A stretch of DNA of 24,000 bases. It comes from Bdellovibrionales bacterium GWA2_49_15 (GTDB lineage Bacteria > Bdellovibrionota > Bacteriovoracia > Bacteriovoracales > Bacteriovoracaceae). Position 1 is the stretch's first letter, and the number at the start of each line of letters is the position of its first letter. The stretch covers positions 9,547 through 33,546 of the forward strand of contig MEPP01000018.1 of NCBI GenBank assembly GCA_001769855.1. The letters are read 5' to 3'. A program made the translations under genes and the position numbers. The notes beneath the pieces are model-generated. The model was not told the DNA's origin, did no database searches, and saw only the letters and a program-made list of their open reading frames with translations. Shown piece after piece: positions 2,292 to 21,853 of the stretch.

Positions 2292-3194
2292 ATGAAAACA
2301 TGCTACATATTCACCGTACTTTTTTTAACCACCTGGTCGTGCATCACCCATGCCAAACTTAGTGTTGTCACGACTACCACAGACCTTCGCGCCCTTACTG
2401 CAGAAGTAGGGGGAGAATTCATCACCGTCGATAGCATTGCCAAAGGCACGCAAGACCCGCACTACATTGAAGCCAAACCTTCTTTCATGATCAAAGTGAA
2501 TCGGGCAGATTTGCTCGTTTCCATTGGGCTTGAATTGGAAATTGGCTGGCTACCCAATATTATTCAAGGGGCCAGAAATCCAAAAGTCCAAAAATGGCAA
2601 AGGGGTAATTTAGAAGTTGGCCCGATGGTTGAACCACTTGAAGTACCAACAGGAAATATTTCTCGTGCTCTCGGCGATGTTCACCCGGACGGCAATCCTC
2701 ATGTGACGCTTGATCCAATAAGAGCGGGGCAAATCGCTCTCTTCATTGCTGAACGTCTTGGTGAACTCGATTCTGAGCATAAAGAGACTTTTGTAAAAAA
2801 TGCTCAAGCAATACAAACACGATTACAGGAAAAAACTAAAGTCTGGCAGAATAAAATCGATCACTCTGGAATAAAAAAGATTGTCACCTATCATAAAACA
2901 TTGACCTATTTTCTGAATCGCTTTCATCTGGAAAATCCTGCTATCTTAGAACCGAAACCTGGGATACCTCCCACTAGTGGACATATCATGGCGGTCATCC
3001 AACTGATTAAAGAACAGAAAATTTCCTTGATTCTAGTTGAGAATTTCTTTGATCCGACGGTTACGGAAAAGATTAAAAATAACGTGCCAACAATTCGTTC
3101 GGCCACTGTTGCCGTTGCGGTAGACGGAGCGCCAAATATTGCAACTATTGATGAACTTTTTGAAACCCTTATCAATACAGTGTGTGGGCGGTAG
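2292..3194 (+). CDS. Metal ABC transporter periplasmic substrate-binding protein (ZnuA/TroA/MntC cluster-9 family)
   Basis: It has a signal peptide and the metal-ligand motifs QDPHYIEAKPS and DGNPHVTLDP, plus TYHKTLTYFLNRF. At 300 aa it has the right size. It lacks the long His-rich loop of canonical ZnuA, so metal specificity is open. Confidence 0.85.
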   Translation: MKTCYIFTVLFLTTWSCITHAKLSVVTTTTDLRALTAEVGGEFITVDSIAKGTQDPHYIEAKPSFMIKVNRADLLVSIGLELEIGWLPNIIQGARNPKVQKWQRGNLEVGPMVEPLEVPTGNISRALGDVHPDGNPHVTLDPIRAGQIALFIAERLGELDSEHKETFVKNAQAIQTRLQEKTKVWQNKIDHSGIKKIVTYHKTLTYFLNRFHLENPAILEPKPGIPPTSGHIMAVIQLIKEQKISLILVENFFDPTVTEKIKNNVPTIRSATVAVAVDGAPNIATIDELFETLINTVCGR

Positions 3195-3196
3195 TT

Positions 3197-4039
3197 ATGC
3201 CAATTTCTGAAGTTATTACCTTTCTTGCGGCCCCTTTTGTGATGTGTCTCCTCTTGGCCGGTATCCACTGCTATCTGGGGTTGCACGTCCTGGCCCGAGG
3301 AGTGATTTTCGTTGATCTAAGTCTTGCCCAGGTCGCGGCCTTTGGTGCCACCGTCGCGATATTTTTTGGCCTTGATCATCATTCACCAGGAACATATTTT
3401 ATCTCTCTGGCAAGCACACTCGGGGCCGCGGCGCTCTTTGCCTTTGCCAGACGACACGAAAAATTATTTTCTCAAGAGGCGGTTATTGGGATTGTCTATG
3501 CACTTGCTTCTGCCGCCGTCGTTCTGGTGGTGGACAAAATCGCTCACGGCGCCGAGCACATCAAAGACATTCTCGTGGGGCAAGTGCTGTGGGTAAGCTG
3601 GCATGATGTCATCAAAACGGCATGCATCTATTGTGTGGTGGCAATTGTTCATTACATTTTTAGGAAGCAAATAATTGCTGCCTCATTTGAAGCCAACTCC
3701 CAGAAGACTGCATTTTGGGATTTTCTATTTTATGCCCTATTTGGTGTCGTCATCACTTCGTCTGTAAGCATGGCAGGAGTCTTACAGGTGTTTGCCTACT
3801 TAATTGTGCCGGCAGTGGTTGGAAGTTTGTTCTTTACCACGATCCGTGCGCGTCTGATCTTCGGTTGGATCTTCGGTCTTATTTTAAGTTTAATTGGGAT
3901 TATACTGGGCCACGTTTTCGATTTGCCAGTAGGCGCGCTTATCGTGGTTTGCTTTGCTTTGGTTCCTGTGATTCTGCTTTTGCTTTCACCAGTGCTGAGA
4001 AGAAAAAAGTTCGCTGCCGATACAAAAAATTGCGTTTGA
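3197..4039 (+). CDS. Metal ABC transporter permease (ABC-3 family, ZnuB/MntB/TroC-like)
   Basis: The ATG at 3197 lies 2 nt after the binding-protein stop, and the ORF track start at 3182 would overlap that gene. The protein is about 280 aa, highly hydrophobic, with about 8 predicted TM segments. Its position directly downstream of the ZnuA-like gene supports the call. Confidence 0.75.
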   Translation: MPISEVITFLAAPFVMCLLLAGIHCYLGLHVLARGVIFVDLSLAQVAAFGATVAIFFGLDHHSPGTYFISLASTLGAAALFAFARRHEKLFSQEAVIGIVYALASAAVVLVVDKIAHGAEHIKDILVGQVLWVSWHDVIKTACIYCVVAIVHYIFRKQIIAASFEANSQKTAFWDFLFYALFGVVITSSVSMAGVLQVFAYLIVPAVVGSLFFTTIRARLIFGWIFGLILSLIGIILGHVFDLPVGALIVVCFALVPVILLLLSPVLRRKKFAADTKNCV

Positions 4040-4083
4040 ATCAAAAGTAACCAGACCAACTTTACTTGAGTCGTTTTGTCTGT

Positions 4084-4338
4084 TTATTCGGATGCAGTGC
4101 CAGGTTTTTTCTTCAGCTCTTTTAAAATTTCATTTTCAAAATGTATAATTTTGGCCTTCTCGATGCGTGTTATGCGCTGAAAAACCTGTTTGAACCCTGT
4201 CTTCATCCACTGCAACTGCGTAGCATATTGAGAACAATATTTGCACATCATCAGATGCATTTTGAGTTCCAGCTTTTTCCCCCATGAAAGGTCTTCATCA
4301 GAACTCAAAGATCGTACAATTTCCTTACATGACAGCAT
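4084..4338 (-). CDS. Small soluble ZAS-type (zf-HC2, RsrA-like) anti-sigma factor
   Basis: The 84 aa protein has no TM segment. It carries Cys4 plus H-x3-C-x2-C (MHLMMCKYC). It lies 33 nt downstream of the ECF sigma gene on the same strand. Confidence 0.7.
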   Translation of the reverse strand: MLSCKEIVRSLSSDEDLSWGKKLELKMHLMMCKYCSQYATQLQWMKTGFKQVFQRITRIEKAKIIHFENEILKELKKKPGTASE

Positions 4339-4371
4339 ATGTTACCCTTTGGACACCTGAAGGCTCGGCCT

Positions 4372-4965
4372 TCAAGGCCTCGCTTTTCCCTCGATACATT
4401 CTCTCAGGCGATTTCGTGCTCGAAACAGGAGAACCCCTAGATTAGTGACAGTGACATTCAAAATATTGCAAATATCCGGGGAATCGTGATCGTCTATTTC
4501 CTTAAGGCAAAAGGCCATTCGTTGTGTGAGAGGAAGGCCATCCAAGCAATGCTCAATCAACTTCATGTTTTCAGTTGCTAAGATAAAACTTTCAGGGTCG
4601 ATAGGTGGTTTAGTCCATTTACCATTTTCATCAAAACGAGCTTCAACCACATCTTCTATGGGGTCATGGTTATGAGATTTTTTCTGCTCCCTCCGTTGTT
4701 CAGAGGCCTTGTTGTAGAGGATGCCAAACAGGAAAGTGCGAACGTGAGACTTCGCTTCAAATTTTGGGACGACATCATAGAAAGTCACCCAAACACTCTG
4801 CACAATTTCTCGGGCGATATTTGAATCAAAACCTAGCCCGAGGGCCCCTTTATACAAATGCTCCGTATAGGCCCGCACGACGGATTCGATCGCATCTGGA
4901 TCGCGGTTTGTTAATCGCCCTACAAACACACTCGATCGAAAATCTATTGAGTTTTCTTGTCCCAT
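4372..4965 (-). CDS. ECF-type RNA polymerase sigma-70 family factor
   Basis: A region-2-like segment reads AREIVQSVWVTFYDVVPKFE..SHVRTFLFGILYNKA. A region-4 HTH reads LPLTQRMAFCLKEIDDHDSPDICNILNVTVTNLGVLLFRARNRLRECI. At 197 aa it has the right size. Confidence 0.85.
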   Translation of the reverse strand: MGQENSIDFRSSVFVGRLTNRDPDAIESVVRAYTEHLYKGALGLGFDSNIAREIVQSVWVTFYDVVPKFEAKSHVRTFLFGILYNKASEQRREQKKSHNHDPIEDVVEARFDENGKWTKPPIDPESFILATENMKLIEHCLDGLPLTQRMAFCLKEIDDHDSPDICNILNVTVTNLGVLLFRARNRLRECIEGKARP

Positions 4966-4986
4966 AATTTTACTCGGAAATTCTTT

Positions 4987-5026
4987 TGTTTAGATATAAA
5001 CATAACCCAAAAAAAGCATCTAAACA
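4987..5026. promoter_or_regulatory. Perfect 9 bp inverted repeat TGTTTAGAT-N22-ATCTAAACA between marR-like and sigma genes
   Basis: Direct reading gives tgtttagat at 4987-4995 and atctaaaca at 5018-5026. The right arm overlaps the MarR-like stop codon at 5020-5022. Function is unknown; it could be an RNA hairpin or a protein-binding site. Confidence 0.4.
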
Positions 5027-5511
5027 ATACTCGTATTGATGCCTCGAAGAGTCCTTAAAAAATCTGGCGAGAGTCGTGGCATGAGCTTGGTAACACGTTT
5101 TATGTGGGGCGGGAGAATTTTTTCAAACAAGCGTTCTCCTTTCCGTGTCAGTTCCACGAGTTCTCGCCCGCCTCTTTCGCCTGTGGGAAGTGTCGTGGTT
5201 AGATGATCTGTCTCAAGGCGACGTAGAAAAGTGGAGATATTACCACGGGTCACACAGAGCCTTTGAGCAATATCAGATGCAGATAACGGGCCATAAAAAT
5301 AGACCAAAAACAGAATTTGAAAGCGTGAGATAGAGCAGTTTTCCTTCAGCAGCTCACGTTCTAATGTACGATATATCTTTTGAAATGATGCCATAAGCAC
5401 TCGCCAGCTTTCAACCTCCGGGAGTTTCAGTAGGTCATCAAGTTCGTGCTTTTTTTCACGTTCTCGGGCCCGAACTACTTTTGGGGGCGAAATGGTCTTT
5501 GATCTTTTCAA
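5020..5511 (-). CDS. MarR-family transcriptional regulator
   Basis: The winged-helix core reads ISRFQILFLVYFYGPLSASDIAQRLCVTRGNISTFLRRLETDHL...RELVELTRKGERLF. The start is uncertain. The ORF track start at 5511 is a TTG preceded by agagagga, and an internal ATG (Met40) is also possible. Confidence 0.75.
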   Translation of the reverse strand: MKRSKTISPPKVVRAREREKKHELDDLLKLPEVESWRVLMASFQKIYRTLERELLKENCSISRFQILFLVYFYGPLSASDIAQRLCVTRGNISTFLRRLETDHLTTTLPTGERGGRELVELTRKGERLFEKILPPHIKRVTKLMPRLSPDFLRTLRGINTSIV

Positions 5512-5858: not shown

Positions 5859-6722
5859 TTATTCTCCATTAAGTGACCAATCGTAATCGAGATAACTTAT
5901 ATTAGCTTCCCTGATTACTTTCTTTTCATCAGGCGTCCTTCCCATTCGAGCGGCGACAAAAGATTGCACTGAACTCTCTCCATTTTTAAAATCAGCACCG
6001 TACCACTTAAAAATAGTCGAAAGATGAAGTTCAGAGGAATCAACAATAAAGCGATTGGAACTGGAATTATTAAGGAAACCATAAGTGGCATCTTCTAATT
6101 GTTCATTTAATCTCTTTGCAATATAGGCCTCTCTCCTTAGGGCCGGACAGCTTTTCGATGCACAGTTTACGGCAAAATGAATGCGGGGATCGTTGAATTT
6201 TTTAAGCCTCGAACGCAAAGATGGCTCAAGTTCTTGCACTGCCTTTACATCCTGGCGAATCAACCCCTGTTCAATATTATCCAAGTTACGTTTTGCACCA
6301 AGAAGTGTAAAAAAGTGTTTTTTCCAGGGACTGGAAAACAAACTTCCAATCTCCTTGATCGACTTGACGGGATAATGGTCTAAGATTAATTTAACCGTAA
6401 AGGCATTGTAGGCATTAATAAGGAAAGCAAGTTGTTCTTCGCGATTAAAAACGTGAAAACTGGACTGTGTTACGGATTCCAGTTCCTTTAAATATAACTC
6501 AAATTCTGATGATGAGTTGACCAGTTTGCCATAGGCCATCTGAGTTCCGTGTTCTTGGCTAGAAATATATTTTTTAAGAATACTGGTCCAACTTGAATGA
6601 TTATGATCAAAGTGATGTATTTCTTTAGCATGGGAACTTTCAAGTTCCGTGGCAAAACTTGAAGTAAGAACAACAAGGATTATCCCGCACAAGAGTGGTT
6701 TCATCATCATAAATTGGTTCAT
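5859..6722 (-). CDS. Secreted DUF547 domain-containing protein
   Basis: It has a signal peptide (KPLLCGIILVVLTSSFA). The DUF547 signature stretch reads LINAYNAFTVKLILDHYPVKSIKEIG...PWKK..F.LLG...LDNIE...DPRIHFAVNCASKSCPAL...FKWYGADF. A good RBS (aaagggga) lies 6 nt upstream of the ATG. Confidence 0.8.
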   Translation of the reverse strand: MNQFMMMKPLLCGIILVVLTSSFATELESSHAKEIHHFDHNHSSWTSILKKYISSQEHGTQMAYGKLVNSSSEFELYLKELESVTQSSFHVFNREEQLAFLINAYNAFTVKLILDHYPVKSIKEIGSLFSSPWKKHFFTLLGAKRNLDNIEQGLIRQDVKAVQELEPSLRSRLKKFNDPRIHFAVNCASKSCPALRREAYIAKRLNEQLEDATYGFLNNSSSNRFIVDSSELHLSTIFKWYGADFKNGESSVQSFVAARMGRTPDEKKVIREANISYLDYDWSLNGE

Positions 6723-6903: not shown

Positions 6904-9066
6904 ATGCAAAGGTCACTCATCTTCAAGATAATCACTTTCGCACTTCTCGTGACCCTCATCGCTCTCTTCTGGGTGTTTAGGCTAGATCGCTTTTTTACCT
7001 TGGATAATTTGAAAATCAGCAGGGAGGCCTTGCGTCAGTATTATCAGATACGGCCCGTCTTTGTGATCGCAAGCTATTTCACTGTCTATGTCGTATCAAC
7101 CGCCCTTTCTTTGCCAGGAGCAACGATCCTAACTCTGGCCGGAGGTGCAATTTTTGGTCTTTGGACAGGCACCCTCATTGTTTCTATTGCCAGCACATTG
7201 GGCGCAACAGCTGCGTTTTTAATGTCGCGCTTTTTACTCCATGATTTTGTTCAAAAACGTTTTGCGGACAAGCTTGCTTCTTTTAATGCTGGAGTTAAGA
7301 AGGATGGGGTCTTCTATCTATTTTCGTTGCGCCTGGTTCCTGTTTTCCCTTTTTTCCTGATCAACCTTGTAATGGGATTAACTGCCATTCCCGTCAAGAC
7401 GTTCTTTTTTATCAGTCAGCTTGGGATGCTCGCCGGGACCTTTGCCTACGTCAATGCGGGGACACGTTTAAGTAAAATAGATTCACTTAAAGGGATTCTT
7501 TCCTTTGAAGTACTATCGGCCTTTGCCTTTATTGGCATTCTTCCCCTCCTATCTAAATTCATGATTGATTTTTATCGCTCTCAAAAGGTCTTGCGCCACT
7601 TCCAAAGGCCCAAAATCTTCGAATACAATGTGGTTGTCATCGGTGCAGGTTCCGCAGGCCTGGTGGCTTCCTACTTCGCTTCTGCTGTCAAGGCCAAAGT
7701 TGCCTTAGTCGAGAAGCATAGAATGGGTGGAGACTGCTTAAATACCGGCTGTGTCCCAAGTAAGGCCCTTATTCGCTCTGCCAAAATTGTTTCCAATATT
7801 CGCCATGCAACTGACTTTGGGTTAAACGAGATTAAACCAGAATTCGATTTTGCCAGAATCATGGAGCGAGTTCAGAGAGTTGTGAGAACTGTTGCCCCCC
7901 ATGACTCGACTGAACGCTACTCTAAATTGGGAGTAGAATGTTTTCAGGGTGACGCGAAGATTATTTCGCCCTATGAAGTCAAAGTCGGCGAGGAAATTCT
8001 TACCGCACGAAATATTATTGTGGCCACAGGTGCCAGTCCCTTGGTGCCACCGATCCCAGGACTAAACGATATTACCTATCTAACCAGCGACACGATCTGG
8101 AATTTACGTCAGCTTCCCAAAAAATTTCTTATCTTGGGTGGTGGCCCAATTGGTTGCGAGTTGGCCCAGGCGTTTGCTCGCTTTGGATCGGAAGTGCATA
8201 TCGTGGAGATGGCCCCACGGCTCATGATCCGTGAAGATGCCGATGTGTCTGAACATATTACCCAACGTTTTACCAATGATGGAATTACCGTTCATGTGGG
8301 AACGAAGGCAAAAGGGGTTAGGCGTGACGGAGAAACAAAATATTTATTGTGTGAGAAAAATGGGAATGAAACACGCATAGAGTTTGATGAAATTCTTTTG
8401 GCCTTGGGACGAAAAGCGAATGTAAGTGGTTTTGGCTTGGCAGAATTGGGGGTTGAAATTTCCACGCGCGGAACCATCGACCATGATGAATTCTTGAGAA
8501 CAAATTACCCCAATATTTACGTGTGTGGAGATGTTGCGGGCCCATATCAATTTACTCACACCGCCGCCCATCAGGCTTGGTATGCCATGGTTAATGCACT
8601 TTTTGCTCCCTTTAAGAAATTTAAAGTTGATTACCGTGTGATTCCATGGTGCACCTTTACAGACCCCGAAGTGGCACGTGTGGGAGTGAACGAACAAGAG
8701 GCCAAGGAAAAGGGGATTGCTTGTCAGGTGTCGAAGTATGCGATCGATGATCTCGATCGAGCCATTGCCGAAGACCAGGCCTATGGTTTTGTGAAGGTCC
8801 TCACGATTCTGGGTACAGATAAAATCTTAGGCGTAACCATCGTTGGCCCCCATGCAGGTGACATCATTGCTGAATATGTGGTTGCTATGAAACACGGTAT
8901 CGGTATGAACAAGATTCTCGGGACGATTCACATTTATCCAACCTTTGCCGAGGCCAACAAATACGTAGCGGGAGTTTGGAAACGGGCAAATGCTCCTCAG
9001 TTTGCACTAAACATGCTTGCACGTTTTCATGCGTGGCGAAGAGGAAATGCAAAGGGGATTGTATGA
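6904..9066 (+). CDS. Fusion protein: N-terminal DedA/TVP38/TMEM64 (SNARE-associated) membrane domain plus C-terminal FAD-dependent pyridine nucleotide-disulfide oxidoreductase (class I, CxxxxC)
   Basis: The N-terminal ~230 aa are polytopic and carry the DedA-type motif LPGATILTLAGGAIFG. The rest has the FAD fold YNVVVIGAGSAGLVAS, the redox disulfide GGDCLNTGCVPSK, the NAD fold LILGGGPIGCELAQ, and the dimerisation-domain pair HIYPTFAE. It has no C-terminal Cys pair and no NmerA domain. Confidence 0.85.
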   Translation: MQRSLIFKIITFALLVTLIALFWVFRLDRFFTLDNLKISREALRQYYQIRPVFVIASYFTVYVVSTALSLPGATILTLAGGAIFGLWTGTLIVSIASTLGATAAFLMSRFLLHDFVQKRFADKLASFNAGVKKDGVFYLFSLRLVPVFPFFLINLVMGLTAIPVKTFFFISQLGMLAGTFAYVNAGTRLSKIDSLKGILSFEVLSAFAFIGILPLLSKFMIDFYRSQKVLRHFQRPKIFEYNVVVIGAGSAGLVASYFASAVKAKVALVEKHRMGGDCLNTGCVPSKALIRSAKIVSNIRHATDFGLNEIKPEFDFARIMERVQRVVRTVAPHDSTERYSKLGVECFQGDAKIISPYEVKVGEEILTARNIIVATGASPLVPPIPGLNDITYLTSDTIWNLRQLPKKFLILGGGPIGCELAQAFARFGSEVHIVEMAPRLMIREDADVSEHITQRFTNDGITVHVGTKAKGVRRDGETKYLLCEKNGNETRIEFDEILLALGRKANVSGFGLAELGVEISTRGTIDHDEFLRTNYPNIYVCGDVAGPYQFTHTAAHQAWYAMVNALFAPFKKFKVDYRVIPWCTFTDPEVARVGVNEQEAKEKGIACQVSKYAIDDLDRAIAEDQAYGFVKVLTILGTDKILGVTIVGPHAGDIIAEYVVAMKHGIGMNKILGTIHIYPTFAEANKYVAGVWKRANAPQFALNMLARFHAWRRGNAKGIV

Positions 9067-10037
9067 TAAATGAGTTAATTTTTCCATTCACACAGATGTT
9101 GGGGAAAAATAATCTAGAACTCACTCGCAACCCAACAGAGATTTTACAAATTAATGTGGGCAAGCTGTGCAATCAGGTTTGTCATCATTGTCATGTGGAA
9201 GCAGGGCCAAACCGCACGGAAATAATGACTAAAAGTGTCGTCAATCGCCTGTTAGAACTTTTGGCCGGGAGTCGCAGTATTCACACAGTGGATTTAACCG
9301 GCGGGGCCCCAGAATTGAATCCCCATTTCAGGACGTTAGTGAGGGAATGTCGCAAGCTCAACAAAAAGGTTATCAATCGATGTAACTTGACCGTGCTTTT
9401 TGAAGATGGCCAGGAGGATACGGCCGGTTTTTTACGGGAGCATCGAGTCCATGTGGTGGCCTCGCTTCCCTGCTATTCAAAAGAAAACTTGGAAAAGCAA
9501 CGCGGGGACGGAGTGTTCGATAAGAGCATCCGCGCACTTCGGATGCTCAATAGTCTAGGATACGGACTAAGAGAGGAGGCACCGCTGTTGGATCTTGTCT
9601 ACAATCCGCTAGGGGCGTTTCTGCCACCCACTCAGGAGACACTTGAGAATAAATATAAAGAAGAGCTGCGAAATCTTTTTGGCATCGAATTTAATCACCT
9701 TTACACCATTACCAATATGCCGATTAAGCGTTTTCTGCGAGAGCTTGAAAGAGCAGGAAAATTACAAAAATATATGGAATTACTCCTTGCCAATTTTAAT
9801 CCTAAGGCCGCTTTAGGAGTTATGTGTCGCTCACTTATCTCTGTGAGCTGGGATGGGAAAATCTTTGACTGTGACTTTAATCAGATGTTGGACCTTCCCC
9901 TTGTTGGAGTGACCAAAACTATCTGGGACATCAAAAGCTTTGCGGAAATTGAGATGAAACCTATTGCTCTAGGCAATCACTGCTATGGCTGTACAGCAGG
10001 AGCAGGAAGCTCTTGCAGTGGCACGGTAGCGAAATAA
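9063..10037 (+). CDS. arsS: Arsenosugar-biosynthesis radical SAM protein ArsS (TIGR04167-type radical SAM with C-terminal Cys-rich domain)
   Basis: The ATG at 9063 overlaps the upstream stop (ATGA), and the ORF track start at 8976 would overlap the previous gene by about 90 nt. The radical SAM cluster motif is CNQVCHHC within INVGKLCNQVCHHCHVEAGP. The C-terminal motif is HCYGCTAGAGSSCSG, the Cys version of the position that is Sec in some family members. Confidence 0.8.
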   Translation: MINELIFPFTQMLGKNNLELTRNPTEILQINVGKLCNQVCHHCHVEAGPNRTEIMTKSVVNRLLELLAGSRSIHTVDLTGGAPELNPHFRTLVRECRKLNKKVINRCNLTVLFEDGQEDTAGFLREHRVHVVASLPCYSKENLEKQRGDGVFDKSIRALRMLNSLGYGLREEAPLLDLVYNPLGAFLPPTQETLENKYKEELRNLFGIEFNHLYTITNMPIKRFLRELERAGKLQKYMELLLANFNPKAALGVMCRSLISVSWDGKIFDCDFNQMLDLPLVGVTKTIWDIKSFAEIEMKPIALGNHCYGCTAGAGSSCSGTVAK

Positions 10038-10058: not shown

Positions 10059-11114
10059 ATGGCCAAAAATAATGATAACCCGATTGAAAGTGTCAAAGAG
10101 TATTATGGCGACGTTTTGAAATCAACTAAGGACCTAAAGACGAGTGCCTGTTGTGTTAACGGTGCTCCTCCTGCGCGAATTCGCGCCATTTTAAAAGACA
10201 TTCACCCAGAAGTTTTAGATAAGTTTTATGGTTGCGGTTCGCCTATTCCACCAGCGTTGGAGGGCAAAACTGTCCTTGATCTCGGCTCAGGAACAGGAAG
10301 GGATTGTTTTATTCTCTCCAAGCTTGTAGGAGGCACAGGCAAAGTCATTGGTGTTGATATGACTCAAAACCAGATTGATACCGCTAACAAGCACCTTGAT
10401 TTTCATACCAAGCAATGGGGGTATGCTCGGCCTAATGTGGTTTTTCGTCAGGGATATATCGAAGATTTGGAAAGTGTTGGGATTAAAAATGAATCCGTCG
10501 ATATTGTAATCTCAAACTGTGTTCTCAATCTTTCACCTAATAAGGAACGAGTATTTGCGGAAATATTTCGCGTCTTAAAGCCAGGAGGCGAGCTTTATTT
10601 CTCTGATGTTTTTGCCGATCGCCGAATTCCAAAAGAGCTGACAACTGATCCACTTCTTCTGGGTGAGTGTTTAAGTGGTGCCCTTTATATTGAGGATTTT
10701 CGTAGGATTCTTTCGCGACTTGGATGTCATGATTATCGGACTCTTTCAAAGTCGCAGATTGCCATTTCTGACTCTGAAGTTGAACACAAAATTGGAATGA
10801 TTAATTTTAACTCCATTACTATCCGTGCGTTTAAACTCGATCTTGAAGATCGTTGCGAAGACTACGGGCAAGTTGCCTACTATAAAGGCAGCATTGATGA
10901 GTGTCCGAATATTTTTACTCTGGATGATCATCATATCTTTACAAAGGATCAGCCGATGTTGATCTGTAAAAATACCGCTTCCATGCTGTCGCAGACACGT
11001 TTTGCCAAACACTTTAAAATAATAGGTGAGGCAAATAAGCATTTCGGTCCTTTCAATTGTGAGATGAATGGAGTTTCCAAGGTCGCAAACATGGCATTGT
11101 CCCCTTGCTGTTAG
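10059..11114 (+). CDS. arsM: Arsenite S-adenosylmethionine methyltransferase ArsM
   Basis: The ATG at 10059 lies 5 nt after gtggagg, and the track start at 10047 is a GTG inside that RBS. The SAM motif is VLDLGSGTGRDCF. Four Cys sit in the contexts expected for ArsM: TSACCV, FYGCGSP, SNCVLNL and LGECLSG. At 351 aa it has the right size. Confidence 0.85.
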   Translation: MAKNNDNPIESVKEYYGDVLKSTKDLKTSACCVNGAPPARIRAILKDIHPEVLDKFYGCGSPIPPALEGKTVLDLGSGTGRDCFILSKLVGGTGKVIGVDMTQNQIDTANKHLDFHTKQWGYARPNVVFRQGYIEDLESVGIKNESVDIVISNCVLNLSPNKERVFAEIFRVLKPGGELYFSDVFADRRIPKELTTDPLLLGECLSGALYIEDFRRILSRLGCHDYRTLSKSQIAISDSEVEHKIGMINFNSITIRAFKLDLEDRCEDYGQVAYYKGSIDECPNIFTLDDHHIFTKDQPMLICKNTASMLSQTRFAKHFKIIGEANKHFGPFNCEMNGVSKVANMALSPCC

Positions 11115-11124
11115 TTGATAGAAT

Positions 11125-11856
11125 ATGCACAACAAAGTAAAAGATTCGCTCAGTGTTATTATTCCTGTGGGCCCTGGCGAAGCGGCCTATTGCAAACTCT
11201 TGCAGGATTTATTTAATCGGCCCTTTGAACAAAGGATCGAAGTTATTTTCTCGGCAATAGAACAACCTCCTTCAGATTTAAATCAGAGCATCCCTCCTCA
11301 TGTTAAGTTCATTTGGATAGCTGGAAAAAAGGGTCGGGCCGAGCAGTTGAACCGAGGCGCCAAAGCAGCGATGGGTGAGACTTTATGGTTTGTCCACGCT
11401 GATAGTCGCTTTGATAATCCGCAAATCATGAAAATGCTCACAACAAAATGTGGACAGAAAAAAAACTCATTTTTCTATTTCGATTTACGTTTTTCTTCGG
11501 ATGGCCCACGCTTGATGCCTCTTAATCAATTAGGTGTATGGATTCGTTCACATATCTTTGGGATTCCTTTTGGGGATCAGGCCTTTGTCATTAATCGTCA
11601 TCTCTTCTGGCAATTAGGTGGTTTTCGTGAAGATGTTCCCTATGGCGAAGATCATCTGTTTGTGTGGGCAGCAAGACACGCCGGTTTTCCCATTCAGCCG
11701 ATTGGACATTATGTTTTCACCAGTGCACGACGCTATGAGCTTCATGGTTGGGGAAAGACAACCATCAAACATATGTGGCTGACATTCCTCCAGACCATAC
11801 CTCTGGCCATAAATCTTGTCTTCAAGAAACGATTGAAGAAAGGAAAGCAACTATGA
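11125..11856 (+). CDS. GT2-like transferase, TIGR04283-type (rSAM/selenodomain-associated, arsenosugar-cluster transferase 2)
   Basis: It shows LSVIIPVGPGE, LWFVHADSRF and IPFGDQAFVINRHLFWQLGGFRE..PYGEDHLF, the pattern of this GT2 subfamily. It sits between arsM and the DUF2064 gene, as in known clusters. Confidence 0.7.
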   Translation: MHNKVKDSLSVIIPVGPGEAAYCKLLQDLFNRPFEQRIEVIFSAIEQPPSDLNQSIPPHVKFIWIAGKKGRAEQLNRGAKAAMGETLWFVHADSRFDNPQIMKMLTTKCGQKKNSFFYFDLRFSSDGPRLMPLNQLGVWIRSHIFGIPFGDQAFVINRHLFWQLGGFREDVPYGEDHLFVWAARHAGFPIQPIGHYVFTSARRYELHGWGKTTIKHMWLTFLQTIPLAINLVFKKRLKKGKQL

Positions 11857-12569
11857 ATGCGGCCTTGGCCATCTTCGTGAAAACTCCTGGATTGTCGCCA
11901 GTCAAAACACGATTGGCTGCCAGTACAAACTCAAACTTTGCAGAGGAGTTCTATCTTCAGGCCATCGGGATTACACGTCTCGTTGTTTCAGCAGCGACTC
12001 AGGCGCAACCCGAGATAAACCCTTACTGGGCAGTGGCAGAGCAAGACGGCCTTGGACATTTTCTATGGAGTGACTTCTCCCGGCTAGGCCAGGGTGATGG
12101 CCCTCTCGGCGATCGTCTTGCATTCGTTTATAATGATCTCAAGAGACATCATGATGCTGTTATTTTTATTGGTGCCGATTGTCCCCTTCTCACTGCTCAG
12201 CACATCATCAGGGCATACGACCTTTTGGCCACAAGGCCAAGACAAGATCATTTCGTTATCGGACCGGCCCAAGACGGTGGCTTCTATCTTTTTGCAGGTG
12301 GGAAGCATATCTCCAAAGAAGAATGGAGTAGTGTTCAATATAGTCAAAGTGATACTAAAAACCAACTAAGCAAAATTTTAAATAAACGAGGAAGAGTCAT
12401 GGAACTTGAACCATTATCTGACATAGATACACACGATGATCTGATCGGTCTTGCTCAGACAATTGTGACAAAAGAAAATCTCCTTGATGTTCAGATTAAG
12501 CTACTTAATTGGATAGCAAAGAGTGAAAAGGAAAAAATAACTTCCTCTGCCGGGAACAAAAAATATTAA
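11853..12569 (+). CDS. DUF2064 / TIGR04282-type transferase (rSAM/selenodomain-associated, arsenosugar-cluster transferase 1)
   Basis: The ATG at 11853 overlaps the upstream stop (ATGA), and the track start at 11748 lies inside the previous gene. The N-terminus reads ALAIFVKTPGLSPVKTRLA. It also shows GDRL, VIFIGADCP and IGPAQDGGFYLFA, all typical of DUF2064. Confidence 0.75.
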   Translation: MNAALAIFVKTPGLSPVKTRLAASTNSNFAEEFYLQAIGITRLVVSAATQAQPEINPYWAVAEQDGLGHFLWSDFSRLGQGDGPLGDRLAFVYNDLKRHHDAVIFIGADCPLLTAQHIIRAYDLLATRPRQDHFVIGPAQDGGFYLFAGGKHISKEEWSSVQYSQSDTKNQLSKILNKRGRVMELEPLSDIDTHDDLIGLAQTIVTKENLLDVQIKLLNWIAKSEKEKITSSAGNKKY

Positions 12570-12746: not shown

Positions 12747-13427
12747 ATGGTGCAAAACTTTAAAATTACAAACTTAAGTATTCTATTTCTTCTGCTTGTC
12801 GGCCTCTCTTCCATTACCGGTAATCTGGCCCAGGCACAAGGACATCATCACCATGTTCTCTGTCATCTTAAAAAGTTTTTAGGCCCCTACCCTGCCAAGG
12901 GATCGGCGGAGGAGGCCGAAGACTTTGCCTTCCTTTTGTATCTTCAAGAAGTCAGAACACCTGAGCAGTGCGCTGAGGCGGCAAAGGAAGTTCATGTTAG
13001 CTTGGAGACTTTTTTCGGTGGCGAAAATGGTCCACTGTCGCCAGCGGAAGTTAAACGTCTTAAGTTTTTCCTCTACTATCATTTTCTTAAAGCTGGCATC
13101 CATTCCACGGTTGGCAAACAAATTTTTAAACGTCCACGCCCCTATGTCGCCAATCCAGCTCTTGTTCCCTGTATCGAAAAGGCAAAATCCTATGCCTACC
13201 CAAGCGGTCACGCCGCAGTCGCAAGAGTTTTTGCCCGAGTGCTTGCCAAGAAATTTCCTGAACGTGCCGCTCTTTTCTTAGAGCGCGGAGACGCTGTTGG
13301 TATGAATCGAATGTTAGGTGGCGTCCATCACCCCACTGATATTGACGCAGGGCAAAGGCTCGGTGATGCCCTCACTCATCGCCTTTTTTCTTCACCAGAA
13401 TTTTTACAAAAGTTAGATAAGCTTTAA
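12747..13427 (+). CDS. Secreted PAP2-superfamily (class A acid phosphatase-like) phosphatase
   Basis: It has a signal peptide. All three PAP2 motifs are present: K-x6-RP (KQIFKRPRP), PSGH, and R-x5-H-x3-D (NRMLGGVHHPTD). Confidence 0.85.
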   Translation: MVQNFKITNLSILFLLLVGLSSITGNLAQAQGHHHHVLCHLKKFLGPYPAKGSAEEAEDFAFLLYLQEVRTPEQCAEAAKEVHVSLETFFGGENGPLSPAEVKRLKFFLYYHFLKAGIHSTVGKQIFKRPRPYVANPALVPCIEKAKSYAYPSGHAAVARVFARVLAKKFPERAALFLERGDAVGMNRMLGGVHHPTDIDAGQRLGDALTHRLFSSPEFLQKLDKL

Positions 13428-13536: not shown

Positions 13537-14073
13537 TTACGAATTTGACTTGATGGCATCAGTTGTAAGCAGGTCCTCAAAAAAGTAAGCTGAAAGTTCA
13601 CTCCTGGATTTTACACCTGCCTTCTTATAGATAGTATTGGCATGATTTCTGATGGTTCGATCGGAGCAATTTCTTATATCGGATATTTCTTTGAGACTTA
13701 GGCCTTTGATAATAAGAAGAGCGATATCACGTTCGGAGGATGTGAGTTCCCAGTCGGTAAATGTACTTTCAAGGTGCTGTTGAAAGTCTTTGGCGAAATA
13801 GGCAGATCTTTTCTTCCAACGGACCAAATCGGCTTCAAGCTGACCCATTGCATTCCTGAAGCGATGACGATTGTCGACGAATAAGCTCCAGCCAATCACA
13901 GAGCCAACAGATACGGCTGCTACCATCCCAATCTCGGCCAATACATTCCTAAATGATAAAAAGGAAAATCCTCCGTCCTGAAGTTTGATTTGAACATCTC
14001 CGACGATGAGCAGGGCAAATGCACCAATTGCTATAGCTAAGCAGATAAGTTTTACTAGATTAGATTTTGTCAT
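13537..14073 (-). CDS. Membrane-anchored LuxR/FixJ-family HTH regulator (two N-terminal TM helices, no receiver domain)
   Basis: The TM segments are LVKLICLAIAIGAFALLIV and IGMVAAVSVGSVIGWSLFV. The C-terminal LuxR HTH reads LTSSERDIALLIIKGLSLKEISDIRNCSDRTIRNHANTIYKKAGVKSRSEL. Confidence 0.75.
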   Translation of the reverse strand: MTKSNLVKLICLAIAIGAFALLIVGDVQIKLQDGGFSFLSFRNVLAEIGMVAAVSVGSVIGWSLFVDNRHRFRNAMGQLEADLVRWKKRSAYFAKDFQQHLESTFTDWELTSSERDIALLIIKGLSLKEISDIRNCSDRTIRNHANTIYKKAGVKSRSELSAYFFEDLLTTDAIKSNS

Positions 14074-14224
14074 GTATTACGCGATAAGTTGGCGGCATTT
14101 TCCTAAATGTCACGGCATATTTTTGCTCATAATGACTAATGACTCATATCTATTTTTAAGTATGACTGTCAATATTCTTCGATCAACTAGTTGCCGAGCA
14201 GCATTAGAGATTAAAGGATATGCA

Positions 14225-15079
14225 GTGAAAGAGAGCTTCCGTCTACCACTCCTGGTCATCTTTTTACTCGGATCTATCAACCTGGGTATGCCGAGTTTTT
14301 CGGCCGAACCAGTTGAAAAAAATGAGGACCTAAGTACGCTTAAATTTGAAGCAAAAGACGATTTTCTTCAATCCATGAAGTGGGCCTACCAAGGGAGTTA
14401 TCTCCAATTTTCGTCTACACAAAATTTAGTCTTTACCGCTGCTGCCATAGGTGCGATTGGATATTTTATTTACAATGATAAGATGATTTCAGAGAAAGCT
14501 GTTAGAGAGAATAAAAATGAAGGATTCATCCGTCTTGTAAGTAAGAGCAGTATTTTCTTCAACACTCCTATTCTGCCCATGACTTTTTATTACTGGGGTC
14601 GAACTCACCAAGATGCAAAGATGGTAAGGTTTTCTCAAGAGTATCTGGCAGCTTTATTTTTGACTCTGGCGGAAGCAGCGGCCATATCCATTATTCCGGT
14701 GCACCAACGACCGGACAAAAAAGATTTATCCTTTATAGAGACAGCTTTTCGAGGACAGTCCTCCTTTCCCTCAGGTCATGTGATTGGCTACACAGTTCTG
14801 GGTTTTAAAAGTTTGCAATTCTACGGGCCAGAGTACGCGATCCTACCATTAGGATTGGCAGTGGCCACGGCCTTTGAAAGAGTACATTCTGAGAAACACT
14901 ATGCTTCCGATGTGATCGCCTCCAGCTTCATTGCACTATTGGCTTCCGAGGGCGTCAGGTATGCTTCCAACTACGATAAAAACCACCCCATTTATGAATG
15001 GATTTTTAAACACGAATTCACACTTCAATATATAAGAAGTGATCAAGTGCCTGGTCTACTGGCAACAGTAACTTTCTAA
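14225..15079 (+). CDS. Membrane PAP2-superfamily lipid phosphatase
   Basis: I prefer the GTG at 14225, which follows aaagga and gives VKESFRLPLLVIFLLG.. as a signal or TM start. The ATG at 14162 is the alternative, and the ORF track start at 14006 overlaps the divergent LuxR gene. It shows PSGH (SSFPSGHVIGY) and R-x5-H-x3-D (ERVHSEKHYASD). The first motif is degenerate (..VHQRP). Confidence 0.7.
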   Translation: MKESFRLPLLVIFLLGSINLGMPSFSAEPVEKNEDLSTLKFEAKDDFLQSMKWAYQGSYLQFSSTQNLVFTAAAIGAIGYFIYNDKMISEKAVRENKNEGFIRLVSKSSIFFNTPILPMTFYYWGRTHQDAKMVRFSQEYLAALFLTLAEAAAISIIPVHQRPDKKDLSFIETAFRGQSSFPSGHVIGYTVLGFKSLQFYGPEYAILPLGLAVATAFERVHSEKHYASDVIASSFIALLASEGVRYASNYDKNHPIYEWIFKHEFTLQYIRSDQVPGLLATVTF

Positions 15080-16235: not shown

Positions 16236-17843
16236 ATGAGAGACAAGTTTTCATCGGTTACGCAAACTGAAACGATTTTATTTTTTTCTATATTCCTCGT
16301 TCTCCTCCACAATATTACATTTTTCAAGAAGGTGATTGAGACCTATGTCCAGAGTCCAAACGGATGGTTATATGTCTTTTCGGTAGCAATCGTTTTATCA
16401 TCTGTTATTAATTTGCTATTTACGTTTGTGCGATCCAAAAATACCACCAAACCCATTTTGATTATTGTTTTATTGCTTTCATCGATGACAGGGTATTTCA
16501 TTGATCATTATGGAATAGTGCTGGATGAAATTATGCTCATCAATGTCACTAAAACAAATTCGGCTGAGGCGTTGGAACTATTTAATTTTCAATTTGTGAT
16601 GTACTTCATCCTTCTTGGATTATTACCATCTTTCATTATTTATAAAATTAAAATCGTAGATACCAGCTTCAAAGCTGAAGTTCTCTCGAAAGTTAAAAAT
16701 ATTATCGCTTCCTTGTTCATTATATTTGGAATGCTTGTTCTTTCTGGAAAGTTTTATGCTTCTTTTTTTAGAGAAAACAAACCGCTTAGATACTACACGA
16801 ATCCAACCTATTTCTTCTATTCGACAGGAAAATACCTAAGCATGTGGATAAAGGAAGGTAATACCGCGATGGCACATGTGGGGGAGGATGCGGCAATATC
16901 ACCTTTGGATGTGGATAGAGATTTGATAATTTTAGTTATTGGAGAAACGGCAAGGGGGGATAGGTTCTCTTTAAATGGGTATTCGAGAGAAACCAATCCT
17001 CTTCTCAAGAACGAAGATGTTGTGAGTTTTTCGAACTTCTCTTCCTGTGGAACGTCGACCGCCATTTCAGTCCCCTGTATGTTTTCGCAATTTGGGAGAA
17101 AGAATTACAATGATAAAAAAGGAAAAATCACAGAAAACTTATTAGATATTCTTTCGCATTCAAAAAAAGTCAATATTTTATGGCGAGATAATAATTCAGA
17201 CTCCAAAGGTGTAGCCTCGCGCATGCAGTATGAAGATTATCAAAGTAGGGAGAGAAATACGATTTGCGATGTTGAGTGCCGTGATGAAGGGATGTTGGTG
17301 GGATTGCAGGAATATATCGACAAGCAAGTCGATGGTGATATTCTGATTATCTTGCACCAAATGGGGAATCATGGACCGGCCTATTACAAACGATATCCTG
17401 GGGAATTTGAAAGATTTCAACCAGTATGTCGTACAAATCAGCTTGAGAAGTGTTCCACTGAAGAGATCAGTAACGCTTACGACAATGCCATCTTGTATAC
17501 CGATTATTTCCTGGCCAAGACTATTGCCTTTCTTAAGCCAAATACAAAAAAATTTGAAACAGCGATGTTTTATGTGAGTGATCATGGTGAATCATTAGGA
17601 GAAGGTGGCCTATATCTTCATGGGCTTCCCTATTTTATGGCACCATCAGAGCAAAAAATGGTTGGCGCTGTTTTATGGGTTGATAATAGAATTATGGCGA
17701 GAAATCACACGAGTTACCCGATGTTAATGAAGAAATCGTCCCTTCCTTATTCCCATGACAACATTTTTCACACCATCTTAGGCCTATTTCAGGTGGAAAC
17801 ATCCATTTATAATAACAAATTAGATATTCTCAGTGAGCAATAA
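16236..17843 (+). CDS. eptA: Phosphoethanolamine--lipid A transferase (EptA/PmrC/MCR family)
   Basis: The N-terminus has about 5 TM helices, followed by a sulfatase-fold domain. Family motifs are GETARGDRFSLNGYSRETNP, SCGTSTAISVPCMFS (catalytic Thr region), HQMGNHGPAYYKRYP, NAYDNAILYTDYF and FYVSDHGESLGEGGLYLHG. A GGAG lies 5 nt upstream of the ATG. Confidence 0.9.
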   Translation: MRDKFSSVTQTETILFFSIFLVLLHNITFFKKVIETYVQSPNGWLYVFSVAIVLSSVINLLFTFVRSKNTTKPILIIVLLLSSMTGYFIDHYGIVLDEIMLINVTKTNSAEALELFNFQFVMYFILLGLLPSFIIYKIKIVDTSFKAEVLSKVKNIIASLFIIFGMLVLSGKFYASFFRENKPLRYYTNPTYFFYSTGKYLSMWIKEGNTAMAHVGEDAAISPLDVDRDLIILVIGETARGDRFSLNGYSRETNPLLKNEDVVSFSNFSSCGTSTAISVPCMFSQFGRKNYNDKKGKITENLLDILSHSKKVNILWRDNNSDSKGVASRMQYEDYQSRERNTICDVECRDEGMLVGLQEYIDKQVDGDILIILHQMGNHGPAYYKRYPGEFERFQPVCRTNQLEKCSTEEISNAYDNAILYTDYFLAKTIAFLKPNTKKFETAMFYVSDHGESLGEGGLYLHGLPYFMAPSEQKMVGAVLWVDNRIMARNHTSYPMLMKKSSLPYSHDNIFHTILGLFQVETSIYNNKLDILSEQ

Positions 17844-17893: not shown

Positions 17894-19057
17894 TCAGATC
17901 AACTGAAGTCTAATCAATCCAACAAGGCCGCCGGCGAGAACAAGCCAGGCGGAATTAATCCGATACCGAATTAGTGCGAAAGCAGCTGCTATTGTGATGG
18001 AGGCGGTAGTGATGTCCACGATTGCCGCGCGCCCAAGATGCCAGGTTACAACGGCCATCAAAGCTAAAGAGGCCACATTAACTCCATCAAGAAACACTCG
18101 CGCCCCGGCCGATCGCTTCAGACGGGGGATCAGAGGGGCACTGATCGCGACGAAGATGAAGGCCGGAAGAAAAATGCCTACAGTCGCCAATAGGGCACCC
18201 GTTGGTCCTGAAAGGAGATAACCAATAAAAGTGGCCGTAGTGAAAACAGGTCCAGGAGTGAATTGCCCGACTGCGGTGGCGTCCAGAAGCTGTGCTTCTG
18301 TGAGCCAGTGGAACCGTTCAACGAGATCGGTTCGGAGGAAGGCGAGTAGAACGTATCCGCTTCCAAACAAAACCGATCCGACTTTAAGAAAAAAGTAGAA
18401 TAGACCGGAGAGACTAAAGGATGCTCCGAGCATCGCGACTCCAGCAGATAACCCGGTCTTTGGCACGACAGCAGAGGCCGTAAGGGCCAGTAGGCCCAAG
18501 AATCCTTTGGGTTTCTTGGGGGTATCCAGAGCTTTCGCAAACAAGTAGCTGATGACGCCGCCGATGAAAATTGTGAAAACCTCGTTCATACCAAATGCGT
18601 TGGCGATGATGGCAAGAATACAAATCAGCGCAAGCGGCCAAGTTTTAATAGCGGTACGCCCAAGCCCCCACAAAGCTTGAATGACGACAGCGATGATAAC
18701 GGGCTTCACACAAAATAAGATTCCATCAACGCTCGGAAGATTTCCATAGCGAGTATAGGCCCACGCGATTGCCGTCACGATTAAGGCAGCAGGCAAGATA
18801 AAGCATACACCCGCGACAATCAGTCCGCGCCAGCCCGCTCTGAGGTGACCGATGTGAATGGCCATCTCTGTCGAGTTTGGGCCGGGGATAAAGTTAGTAG
18901 CACCAAGAAGGTCTAGGAATTCACTTCGCTCGATCCACTTTCTGCGCCGAACAACCTCATCTTCCATCATGGCGATGTGGGCGGCAGGCCCACCGAATGC
19001 CGTCGTTCCAAGTTTGAGGAATACCAGTGCGATTTCTTTCAGGGAAGATGTTTTCAT
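17894..19057 (-). CDS. chrA: CHR-family (ChrA-like) chromate/oxyanion transporter
   Basis: I prefer the start at Met27 (19057), which gives MKTSSLKEIALVFLKLGTTAFGGPAAHIAMMEDEVVRRRKWI, the typical ChrA N-terminus. The track start is 19135. The protein has duplicated CHR halves, with the second half showing GSGYVLLAFLRTDLVERFHWLTEAQLLDATAVGQFTPGP. It is about 387 aa and polytopic. Confidence 0.85.
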   Translation of the reverse strand: MKTSSLKEIALVFLKLGTTAFGGPAAHIAMMEDEVVRRRKWIERSEFLDLLGATNFIPGPNSTEMAIHIGHLRAGWRGLIVAGVCFILPAALIVTAIAWAYTRYGNLPSVDGILFCVKPVIIAVVIQALWGLGRTAIKTWPLALICILAIIANAFGMNEVFTIFIGGVISYLFAKALDTPKKPKGFLGLLALTASAVVPKTGLSAGVAMLGASFSLSGLFYFFLKVGSVLFGSGYVLLAFLRTDLVERFHWLTEAQLLDATAVGQFTPGPVFTTATFIGYLLSGPTGALLATVGIFLPAFIFVAISAPLIPRLKRSAGARVFLDGVNVASLALMAVVTWHLGRAAIVDITTASITIAAAFALIRYRINSAWLVLAGGLVGLIRLQLI

Positions 19058-19226
19058 TGGGCACCTGAACGCTTTTTTGCTACACGCCCGGATCGGGTTG
19101 TTCATAAGATATTTTTCGAATGCATTGAGCATCATACCAGATTACCTCCATTGCTAAGGCGTTACACAAAACCATGAAACATGAGGTCAGCCACAATCAT
19201 GTCGAATTTGATTTGGGATGATTTCC

Positions 19227-19511
19227 TCATATTCGTCCCTTCTTTTCTTCCTCGTTTAAAACTACCTCTCGATGTAGCTCTCGGATTTGGTCGCGAAGAA
19301 TGGCCAGTACCTTGTGACCAGTTTTGGTCAGGGAGTATTCCTTGCGCGCGCGCAGGCCGCTGTTTGGATCGGTTTCTTTGCGGTATGGTGGAGAATGTGA
19401 ACTTTCCAGAATAAAAGTAAAATTTCCCGTTGAAGATTTTTCATGGATATTGCGAAAACCGTAGTCGATATAGGTATTTATGTCAAGCCATGGGATGACT
19501 CTAGTTAGCAT
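19227..19511 (-). CDS. PadR-like winged-helix transcriptional regulator
   Basis: The 94 aa protein shows YGFRNIHEKSSTGNF...ILE...RARKEYSLTKTGHKVL. This resembles PadR (YGYEI..., LE..G, RKYY.LT..G). It sits upstream of chrA on the same strand. The N-terminus is short for the family. Confidence 0.5.
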   Translation of the reverse strand: MLTRVIPWLDINTYIDYGFRNIHEKSSTGNFTFILESSHSPPYRKETDPNSGLRARKEYSLTKTGHKVLAILRDQIRELHREVVLNEEEKKGRI

Positions 19512-19576
19512 CGAGAATGTCCTGTCTAATGGCCTGGTTTATTCGTTGACCTTTATAGGGCGCTCATATATCCTTC

Positions 19577-19596
19577 ATTCCAAGGATTCTTGGAAT
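19577..19596. promoter_or_regulatory. 20 bp palindrome ATTCCAAG-gatt-CTTGGAAT covering the RBS and start codon of the ArsR::rhodanese gene
   Basis: Direct reading gives attccaag at 19577-19584 and cttggaat at 19589-19596. The ATG is at 19595-19597 and the putative SD aagga at 19582-19586. A TTGACC box lies about 30 nt upstream at 19545-19550. Confidence 0.45.
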
Positions 19597-20266
19597 GACA
19601 GGAAAAAACGCCAAACAATCACTGTACGAATTTGTTGCCCAGGTTGGCAAAGCTGTTTCCAGCCCTAAGCGACTGGAGATATTGGATACACTTTCACAGA
19701 GTGAAAAGACAGTGGATGCCATAGCTAAACAGATCGGAATCAGTCTCAAGTTGGCCAGTGCCCACCTGCAAGACTTAAAAGCTGTGTCGTTAGTAGATTC
19801 GCGACGGGATGGAAAATGTGTTTACTATCGTGTCGCAGATTCTGATGTAACGACGTTCTGGGTGGGATTAAGGACTCTTGCCGAAAAACGTCTGTCCGCT
19901 ATGCAGGACATATTGAAGGGTTTTGTGGGCGAGCCGAATACCTTGACACCTATGGACCACAAGACTCTGATGGCGAGGGCCAAATCCGGTGATGTCATCA
20001 TCATTGACGTTCGACCACAAGAGGAGTTTGAAGCCGGTCATTTTCCTGGGGCCCGTTCTCTGCCGCTTGATCAGCTTAAAAAAACATTAAAGTCCCTTCC
20101 CAAGAGCAAAGCGATCGTCGCCTATTGTCGCGGCCCGTACTGTCTACTGGCAGAGGATGCCGTGGCAATTTTGCAACGGAAAGGGTTTCGGGCAACAAGG
20201 TTTCCAGAGGGGGTCTCGGAATGGATCGCGGCAGGCCTGCCTATTGAGAAGAATACAATCTTGTAA
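19595..20266 (+). CDS. ArsR/SmtB-family regulator fused to a C-terminal rhodanese domain
   Basis: The N-terminal HTH reads SSPKRLEILDTLSQSEKTVDAIAKQIGISLKLASAHLQDLKAVSLV. The C-terminal rhodanese domain reads IIIDVRPQEEFEAGHFPGARSLP with the active-site loop AYCRGPYC. Confidence 0.85.
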   Translation: MTGKNAKQSLYEFVAQVGKAVSSPKRLEILDTLSQSEKTVDAIAKQIGISLKLASAHLQDLKAVSLVDSRRDGKCVYYRVADSDVTTFWVGLRTLAEKRLSAMQDILKGFVGEPNTLTPMDHKTLMARAKSGDVIIIDVRPQEEFEAGHFPGARSLPLDQLKKTLKSLPKSKAIVAYCRGPYCLLAEDAVAILQRKGFRATRFPEGVSEWIAAGLPIEKNTIL

Positions 20267-20277
20267 TGGAGGTCAAA

Positions 20278-20628: not shown

Positions 20629-20691
20629 TTTATGTACAGGACGTGCAGTATGCCGATGTGAGCAGGAGCGATCATCGGCGATGGGGGCGTT

Positions 20692-21852: not shown

Positions 21853-21853
21853 A

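Follow-up and report, generated by a model that had tools for sequence, protein, structure and literature searches.

A TVP38/TMEM64-FAD oxidoreductase fusion beside arsS: tyrosine at the catalytic histidine position and a loose link to arsenosugar genes

The 24,000-nucleotide stretch of the Bdellovibrionales bacterium GWA2_49_15 genome analysed here (the window) carries a gene in which a DedA-type membrane domain is followed by a class I pyridine nucleotide-disulfide oxidoreductase (Table 1). As the preliminary description had stated, this is one open reading frame of 720 codons, uninterrupted on the plus strand, and both parts lie in that frame: Pfam places VTT_dom (PF09335) at residues 73-187 (E 6e-25), Pyr_redox_2 (PF07992) at 241-558 and Pyr_redox_dim (PF02852) at 580-686, the succession that defines a TVP38/TMEM64-FAD oxidoreductase fusion. 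The DedA motif begins at residue 70. The reductase part has the features of a class I flavoprotein disulfide reductase, namely the CxxxxC pair (C278/C283) and two Rossmann motifs (from residues 247 and 411) already recognized in that description, and a dimerisation domain. In the AlphaFold model (mean pLDDT 77, pTM 0.65) the N-terminal domain is entirely helical and closes with a long helix (201-230); a short linker then leads to the reductase fold, after which comes a final helix (699-712) that is probably amphipathic. Residues 665-689 are modelled poorly in the monomer. Foldseek with this model returned dihydrolipoamide dehydrogenase (LipDH) and mercuric reductase (MerA) equally, at 32-34% identity, and a sequence search for a solved DedA relative found none.

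Table 1. Features of the fusion gene and its neighbours, in window coordinates.
Feature	Position	Strand	Basis or remark
DUF547 protein, divergent	5859..6722	-	recurrent fusion neighbour, 22 related loci
DedA(COG0398)-flavoprotein disulfide reductase fusion, 720 aa	6904..9066	+	
YdjX-type DedA/TVP38 membrane domain, residues 1-232	6904..7599	+	Pfam; AlphaFold model all-helical
Class I pyridine nucleotide-disulfide oxidoreductase domain	7612..9063	+	best match PRK06370.1-3, below cut-off
Redox-active CxxxxC pair C278/C283	7735..7752	+	conserved 120/120
Glu435, end of second strand of NAD(P) Rossmann fold, NADH-type	8206..8208	+	
Tyr678...Glu683 in place of His-Glu acid-base pair	8935..8952	+	Y in 76/76 and 120/120
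C-terminal helix, residues 699-712, at position of MerA Cys-Cys tail	8998..9039	+	AlphaFold, alignment
ArsS radical SAM enzyme	9063..10037	+	TIGR04167 442 bits, cut-off 300
ArsM arsenite methyltransferase	10059..11114	+	PDB 5evj E 1e-107; PRK11873 below cut-off
TIGR04283-like GT2 glycosyltransferase	11125..11856	+	166 bits, cut-off 182
TIGR04282-like CofC-fold protein (DUF2064)	11853..12569	+	117 bits, cut-off 134

A purine-rich stretch precedes the ATG of the fusion gene, whose TGA (9064-9066) overlaps the arsS ATG (9063-9065) by 4 nt; further along the run, the start of the TIGR04282-like gene overlaps the TIGR04283-like stop, again by 4 nt. A scan for promoters and terminators returned nothing beyond chance. 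The fusion had been described as the first gene of an arsenic operon. It is indeed the first gene of the plus-strand run, but that run is an arsenosugar-biosynthesis cluster rather than a resistance operon: arsS scores above its cut-off, the arsM, TIGR04282 and TIGR04283 homologues are clear but below theirs, and neither arsB/acr3 nor arsC nor arsR was found among the annotated flanking genes. Elsewhere in the window, positions 2292-5511 hold ZnuA, ABC-3 metal uptake genes, an ECF sigma factor and a MarR regulator, and homologues of the last two recur in some related arsenosugar loci. An EptA-type phosphoethanolamine-lipid A transferase (16236-17843, plus strand) scores above the general cut-off and far below all MCR cut-offs; two PAP2 genes (12747-13427 and 14006-15079) lie near it. 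At 17894-22975, a ChrA chromate transporter gene on the minus strand is divergent from genes for an ArsR-rhodanese fusion, an SQR/FCSD-like flavoprotein and a class V aminotransferase.

The fusion architecture is common, and has already been named and published. RefSeq plasmid entries at NCBI with the same architecture are called [quoted passage not shown], many ESM Atlas clusters (one of 1,100 members) show this domain set, and at least 8,000 proteins, counting all scored candidates, match the fusion in our homologue search. PF07992/PF02852 is the commonest fusion partner of COG0398 DedA proteins (Todor et al. 2023, PMC10127716). No functional study or biochemical role of fused members was found in the literature searched, as the preliminary description had also said of this architecture. 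What is new here is a correction concerning one active-site tyrosine, together with counts that show a loose association with arsenosugar genes. A frameshift or mis-assembly artefact was considered and ruled out, the best 120 homologues, which were aligned, being full-length (92-100% query coverage, 62-74% identity). Natural split forms also exist, as adjacent genes.

The preliminary description had taken an HxxPTxxE pair as catalytic. The motif is present as spelled, yet its His676 is the first histidine and not catalytic; the site of the catalytic His in LipDH and GR, five residues before Glu683, is Tyr678 in the fusion. In alignments, the catalytic His of Thermus E3 and the MerA Tyr (5x1y) both fall opposite this residue. 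Tyr678 and Glu683 are invariant among 76 reductases of the family and among the 120 full-length homologues, whereas the true LipDH rows of the alignment have His. In GR, LipDH and large TrxR the His-Glu pair is reported to be invariant, and Tyr replaces it in MerA and transhydrogenase (Ojha et al., PMC1924876); Tyr678 in place of the catalytic His therefore argues that the fusion is neither a lipoamide-type nor a glutathione-type enzyme.

Scores against curated models agree in leaving the reductase outside each named class. The best NCBIfam match is PRK06370.1-3, at 530 bits (E 5e-159) against a curated cut-off of 620; the fusion scores 407 against TIGR01350 (LipDH, cut-off 408.8), 404 bits against TIGR02053 (MerA, cut-off 454) and 272 bits against the SthA model (cut-off 465). 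SthA is further characterised by a single Cys in the redox motif, whereas the fusion keeps both, and C278 and C283 are each invariant among the 120 homologues. The earlier judgement that this is no canonical MerA, lacking both the C-terminal Cys-Cys pair and NmerA, is borne out. The interface Tyr is that of MerA, but the last Cys of the fusion is residue 607, no NmerA domain is present, no mer genes were identified among the neighbours, and the TIGR02053 score is below the cut-off; a single one of the 120 homologues has a Cys within its last 30 residues. The family is widely misnamed dihydrolipoamide dehydrogenase or mercuric reductase, and the invariant Tyr and the missing Cys tail are arguments against these two names. 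Judged by sequence, the reductase is similar to the catalytic core of MerA, minus its Hg-delivery parts, and belongs to none of MerA, LipDH and GR. Residue 435 is acidic in 67 of the 76 family members (Glu in 63, Asp in 4). An acidic residue at this NAD-site position in these folds favours NADH, and Glu435 suggests NADH as the cofactor.

Many database names imply a dihydrolipoamide dehydrogenase (E3), here anchored in the membrane, but this is highly improbable. The TIGR01350 score does come close to the cut-off, and the fusion is the only class I reductase in an assembly that has E1, E2 and GcvH genes; yet the catalytic His is Tyr, carriers usually hold one or two true lpd genes besides, and no gene here is orthologous to the lpd-E2 block of two congeners, a sign of an assembly gap. 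No other PF02852 gene or dihydrolipoamide dehydrogenase was found in this assembly, where sucA-sucB, other E1/E2 genes and two GcvH genes are present despite the absent lpd; the congeners G303 (99% complete) and G304 likewise have no lpd match. An assembly gap fits the missing orthologues of the true lpd block, and real loss of lpd may also have taken place, since even the 99%-complete G303 has none. That the fusion serves as the sole E3 of the genome was rejected as unlikely, because of Tyr678 and the missing lpd block.

The reductase might instead act on metal ions, as a non-canonical reductase for Hg(II) or U(VI) in the manner of the cyanobacterial MerA-like protein Slr1849, a putative member of the same reductase subfamily. 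Both ions are reduced by Slr1849 with NADPH (PMC4307280). MerA is also the top sequence match among solved structures, the Tyr is MerA-like, and a cyanobacterial "mercuric reductase merA1_2" (L139:4935-7270), a subfamily member with the same motifs, converges on a related DedA gene. We nevertheless consider metal-ion reduction improbable, given the missing Cys-Cys tail and NmerA domain, the TIGR02053 score, the NADH-type Glu435, and a set of recurrent neighbours among which no mer genes were identified.

The membrane domain is 31% identical to E. coli YdjX (E 6e-23) and matches YdjZ as well, while YghB (E 0.02) and YqjA are barely matched. The Glu and Asp in re-entrant helix 1 of YqjA/YghB align with non-acidic residues in the fusion (Ala73 stands opposite the Asp), and in re-entrant helix 2 R143 is kept and the second Arg is absent; lacking these acidic residues and the second Arg, the domain belongs with COG0398 (YdjX-type) and not with the COG0586 UndP flippases, which have two acidic residues and two Arg. 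COG0398 proteins have been proposed, from similarity to eukaryotic homologues, to be phospholipid scramblases rather than UndP flippases (Todor et al. 2023, PMC10127716), and by this analogy the DedA domain of the fusion is most likely an energy-independent lipid scramblase. The idea of a membrane-tethered reductase is supported. Its reductase domain would face the cytoplasm: it would need NAD(P)H, a basic linker follows the last membrane helix, and the split homologues point the same way; unfused Bdellovibrionota reductases of the subfamily are short, at about 475-510 aa, and some have no space for a signal peptide.

The gene order DUF547 / fusion / PiT / arsS / arsM / MTAP / GT / GT recurs across many families. 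Related loci often include the PiT phosphate transporter and the MTAP-type phosphorylase, and sometimes ArsC, AhpD/CMD or a sterol-desaturase-family gene, the last in 10 loci. Copies of the fusion without arsS often adjoin the glycosyltransferases or ynjBCD-ynjF. On annotated plasmids the fusion occurs with ynjBCD and a CDP-alcohol phosphatidyltransferase, or with a TonB receptor and a nucleoside transporter; on the Burkholderia glumae plasmid pBIN_2 (L140) it lies with TIGR04282, TIGR04283, MTAP and an MFS transporter, with neither arsS nor arsM in the 17 kb covered. Altogether 49 Burkholderia plasmid records match the fusion. A Citrobacter plasmid (L121) has it inside a DUF692-DoxX-ynjBCD-ynjF block found on conjugative plasmids of enteric bacteria, and matches scoring equally to this copy come from Klebsiella, Providencia and Salmonella. 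In genome G123 the fusion (L066:5188-7196, minus strand) and an arsM-like gene point away from each other, and behind the latter comes a radical SAM gene; this one, with weak matches to the Rv1681 family and TIGR04167, is not ArsS, and the locus may encode another organoarsenical pathway.

Among 301 Bdellovibrionota genomes, 68 encode the fusion and 22 more encode a reductase of the subfamily that is either unfused or truncated at a contig end, making 90 carriers. For the 16 unfused Bdellovibrionota reductases fetched as a test, a DedA gene lay directly upstream in every case. DedA and reductase form a constant unit, fused or adjacent, of which arsS is a frequent but optional partner. The link to arsenosugar genes is real: arsS is found in 34 of 90 carriers versus 20 of 211 non-carriers in the Bdellovibrionota (odds ratio 5.8), and in 23 of 37 versus 92 of 214 in a Pseudomonadota sample of 251 genomes weighted towards relatives of one Burkholderiales genome (odds ratio 2.2), although these ratios overstate independence because the genomes are related and some are incomplete. 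TIGR04282 likewise occurs in 47 of the 90 Bdellovibrionota carriers versus 27 of the 211 non-carriers, reductase and arsS are no more than 15 kb apart in 19 of the 301 genomes, and the two are adjacent, as read by eye, in 8 of the 23 Pseudomonadota genomes that have both. Nearly all Pseudomonadota carriers (34/37) have arsS, TIGR04282 or ynjB; the 14 without arsS include 7 with ynjB and 11 with ynjB or TIGR04282. Taxonomy confounds the further comparisons in this sample, in which ynjB is present in 7 of 14 arsS-free carriers versus 10 of 122 arsS-free non-carriers and arsS in 0 of 17 ynjB genomes versus 115 of 234 others.

Nonetheless, the fusion is not an obligatory member of the arsenosugar cluster. 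The preliminary description had named a distribution independent of arsS/arsM as evidence against its reading, and that picture holds in part: enrichment is clear, but 56 of 90 Bdellovibrionota and 14 of 37 Pseudomonadota carriers have no arsS, and 39 of the 90 have neither arsS nor TIGR04282. Conversely, the reductase is missing from 20 of 54 arsS genomes in the Bdellovibrionota and from 92 of 115 (80%) in the Pseudomonadota, and in several genomes of the window's own family it has housekeeping genes as neighbours. A search for a reductase clade dedicated to arsS found none; arsS-adjacent copies are scattered over the tree with 14 changes, at least 6 of them forced, counts that are not unbiased since the loci were partly picked for arsS adjacency. 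In the tree the window copy clusters with those of other families (98 SH-aLRT), and both fusion and arsS are absent from three congeners; grouping with the family's own copies is not rejected by an AU test (p 0.11), and the case for horizontal acquisition together with arsS is suggestive only.

We tentatively read the fusion as an accessory reductase that faces the cytoplasm, acts on organoarsenicals or partner thiols, and is anchored to a lipid scramblase. It would be a homodimeric FAD enzyme, held at the cytoplasmic face of the inner membrane by its YdjX-type DedA domain, in which hydride passes from NADH to FAD to the C278-C283 disulfide. Tyr in place of the dimer-interface His, as in MerA and SthA, makes a bound metalloid centre or a dedicated partner a likelier acceptor than free lipoamide or GSSG. 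The likeliest acceptors at this locus would be pentavalent methylarsenicals, arsenoribosides (As=O), and oxidised thiols of ArsM or of an AhpD-type partner. ArsS converts DMAs(III) to DDMAA (PMC13598754) and so requires trivalent arsenic; the fusion may serve to keep arsenic trivalent for ArsM and ArsS. Alternatively, it may process the arsenoriboside where this is joined to membrane lipid, while DedA would shift the lipid from one leaflet to the other. The MTAP, CofC-like, GT2 and phosphatidyltransferase neighbours suggest a route from DDMAA to arsenoriboside and then to lipid. In either role the module would be accessory, not an obligatory step.

For this organoarsenical reading we count the 4-nt overlap with arsS, the recurring gene order and the arsS/TIGR04282 enrichment, the arsS-free Burkholderia glumae plasmid locus that keeps both glycosyltransferases and MTAP, the scattering of arsS-adjacent copies, and the DedA gene upstream of all unfused reductases fetched. 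Against it count the many Pseudomonadota arsS genomes without the reductase, the carriers lacking both arsS and TIGR04282, and the copies among housekeeping genes in the window's family; moreover, ArsM can use glutathione in vitro, so that a dedicated reductase is not needed.

Those same arsenic-free carriers would suit a general membrane module for redox stress or lipid repair, with an AhpD/CMD-type partner or an oxidised membrane thiol as its substrate; shared islands or common regulation would then have brought it next to arsenosugar and ynj genes. Its neighbours include CMD/AhpD, DoxX, DUF692, thioredoxin and ECF sigma genes, and the occurrence of COG0398 follows aerobic metabolism (PMC10127716). 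However, close association with arsS and the glycosyltransferases is seen repeatedly in unrelated lineages, and loss of the acid-base His speaks against ordinary disulfide exchange, which leaves such a module a serious but rather unlikely explanation. Complementary routes of organoarsenical production (arsM, arsS, MTAP, glycosyltransferases) and import (ynjBCD, ynjF) could also share a single membrane step, in which the Tyr-type flavin-disulfide enzyme reduces the As=O head group of an arsenoriboside or arsenolipid and is coupled to an arsenosugar-phospholipid scramblase; this more specific proposal we regard as unlikely. Radical SAM clusters require reductive activation, the Tyr-Glu pair is common to the fusion and SthA, and sterol-desaturase-family genes recur nearby, all in line with a diaphorase- or transhydrogenase-like electron donor whose acceptor would be the [4Fe-4S] cluster of ArsS, a membrane desaturase or hydroxylase encoded nearby, or quinone. 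Such a donor is quite unlikely, in that both Cys are invariant in the fusion family while E. coli SthA, 27% identical, has one, and in that the ArsS reaction is redox-neutral once started (PMC13598754). The soluble reductase domain and the short list of candidate acceptors make both the post-ArsS arsenosugar and arsenolipid steps and questions of COG0398 DedA substrates testable.

Compared with known systems, the fusion has the architecture and length of the NCBI bifunctional TVP38/TMEM64-FAD oxidoreductases (53-55% identity over 95-99% of the query) with no structural difference, the window copy standing in an arsS-arsM context. Against PRK06370.1-3 it falls below the cut-off, is without the first 34 positions of the model, and is joined to DedA. 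With LipDH and GR it shares fold and CxxxxC, and with LipDH the acidic NAD-site residue, but differs by Tyr678 for the catalytic His. The E. coli locus ydjXYZ-ynjABCDEF encodes a related DedA domain in YdjX and has no reductase; elsewhere the fusion is found alongside ynjBCD, ynjF and AhpD-like genes, and ynjB, ynjC and ynjF have no match in this genome. The characterised Synechocystis ArsM-ArsS arsenosugar pathway is without this fusion, as are most arsS genomes of the Pseudomonadota sample, while arsS, arsM and both glycosyltransferase-like genes are present here. MerA is alike in fold (TM 0.88 by target), in the inner CxxxxC and in Tyr-Glu for His-Glu; unlike MerA, the fusion has no Cys-Cys tail, NmerA or mer operon, and does have an NADH-type acidic residue and a DedA partner. 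The cyanobacterial NIES-970 merA1_2 has in common with the fusion its active-site motifs, its C-terminal helix and its association with a DedA gene.
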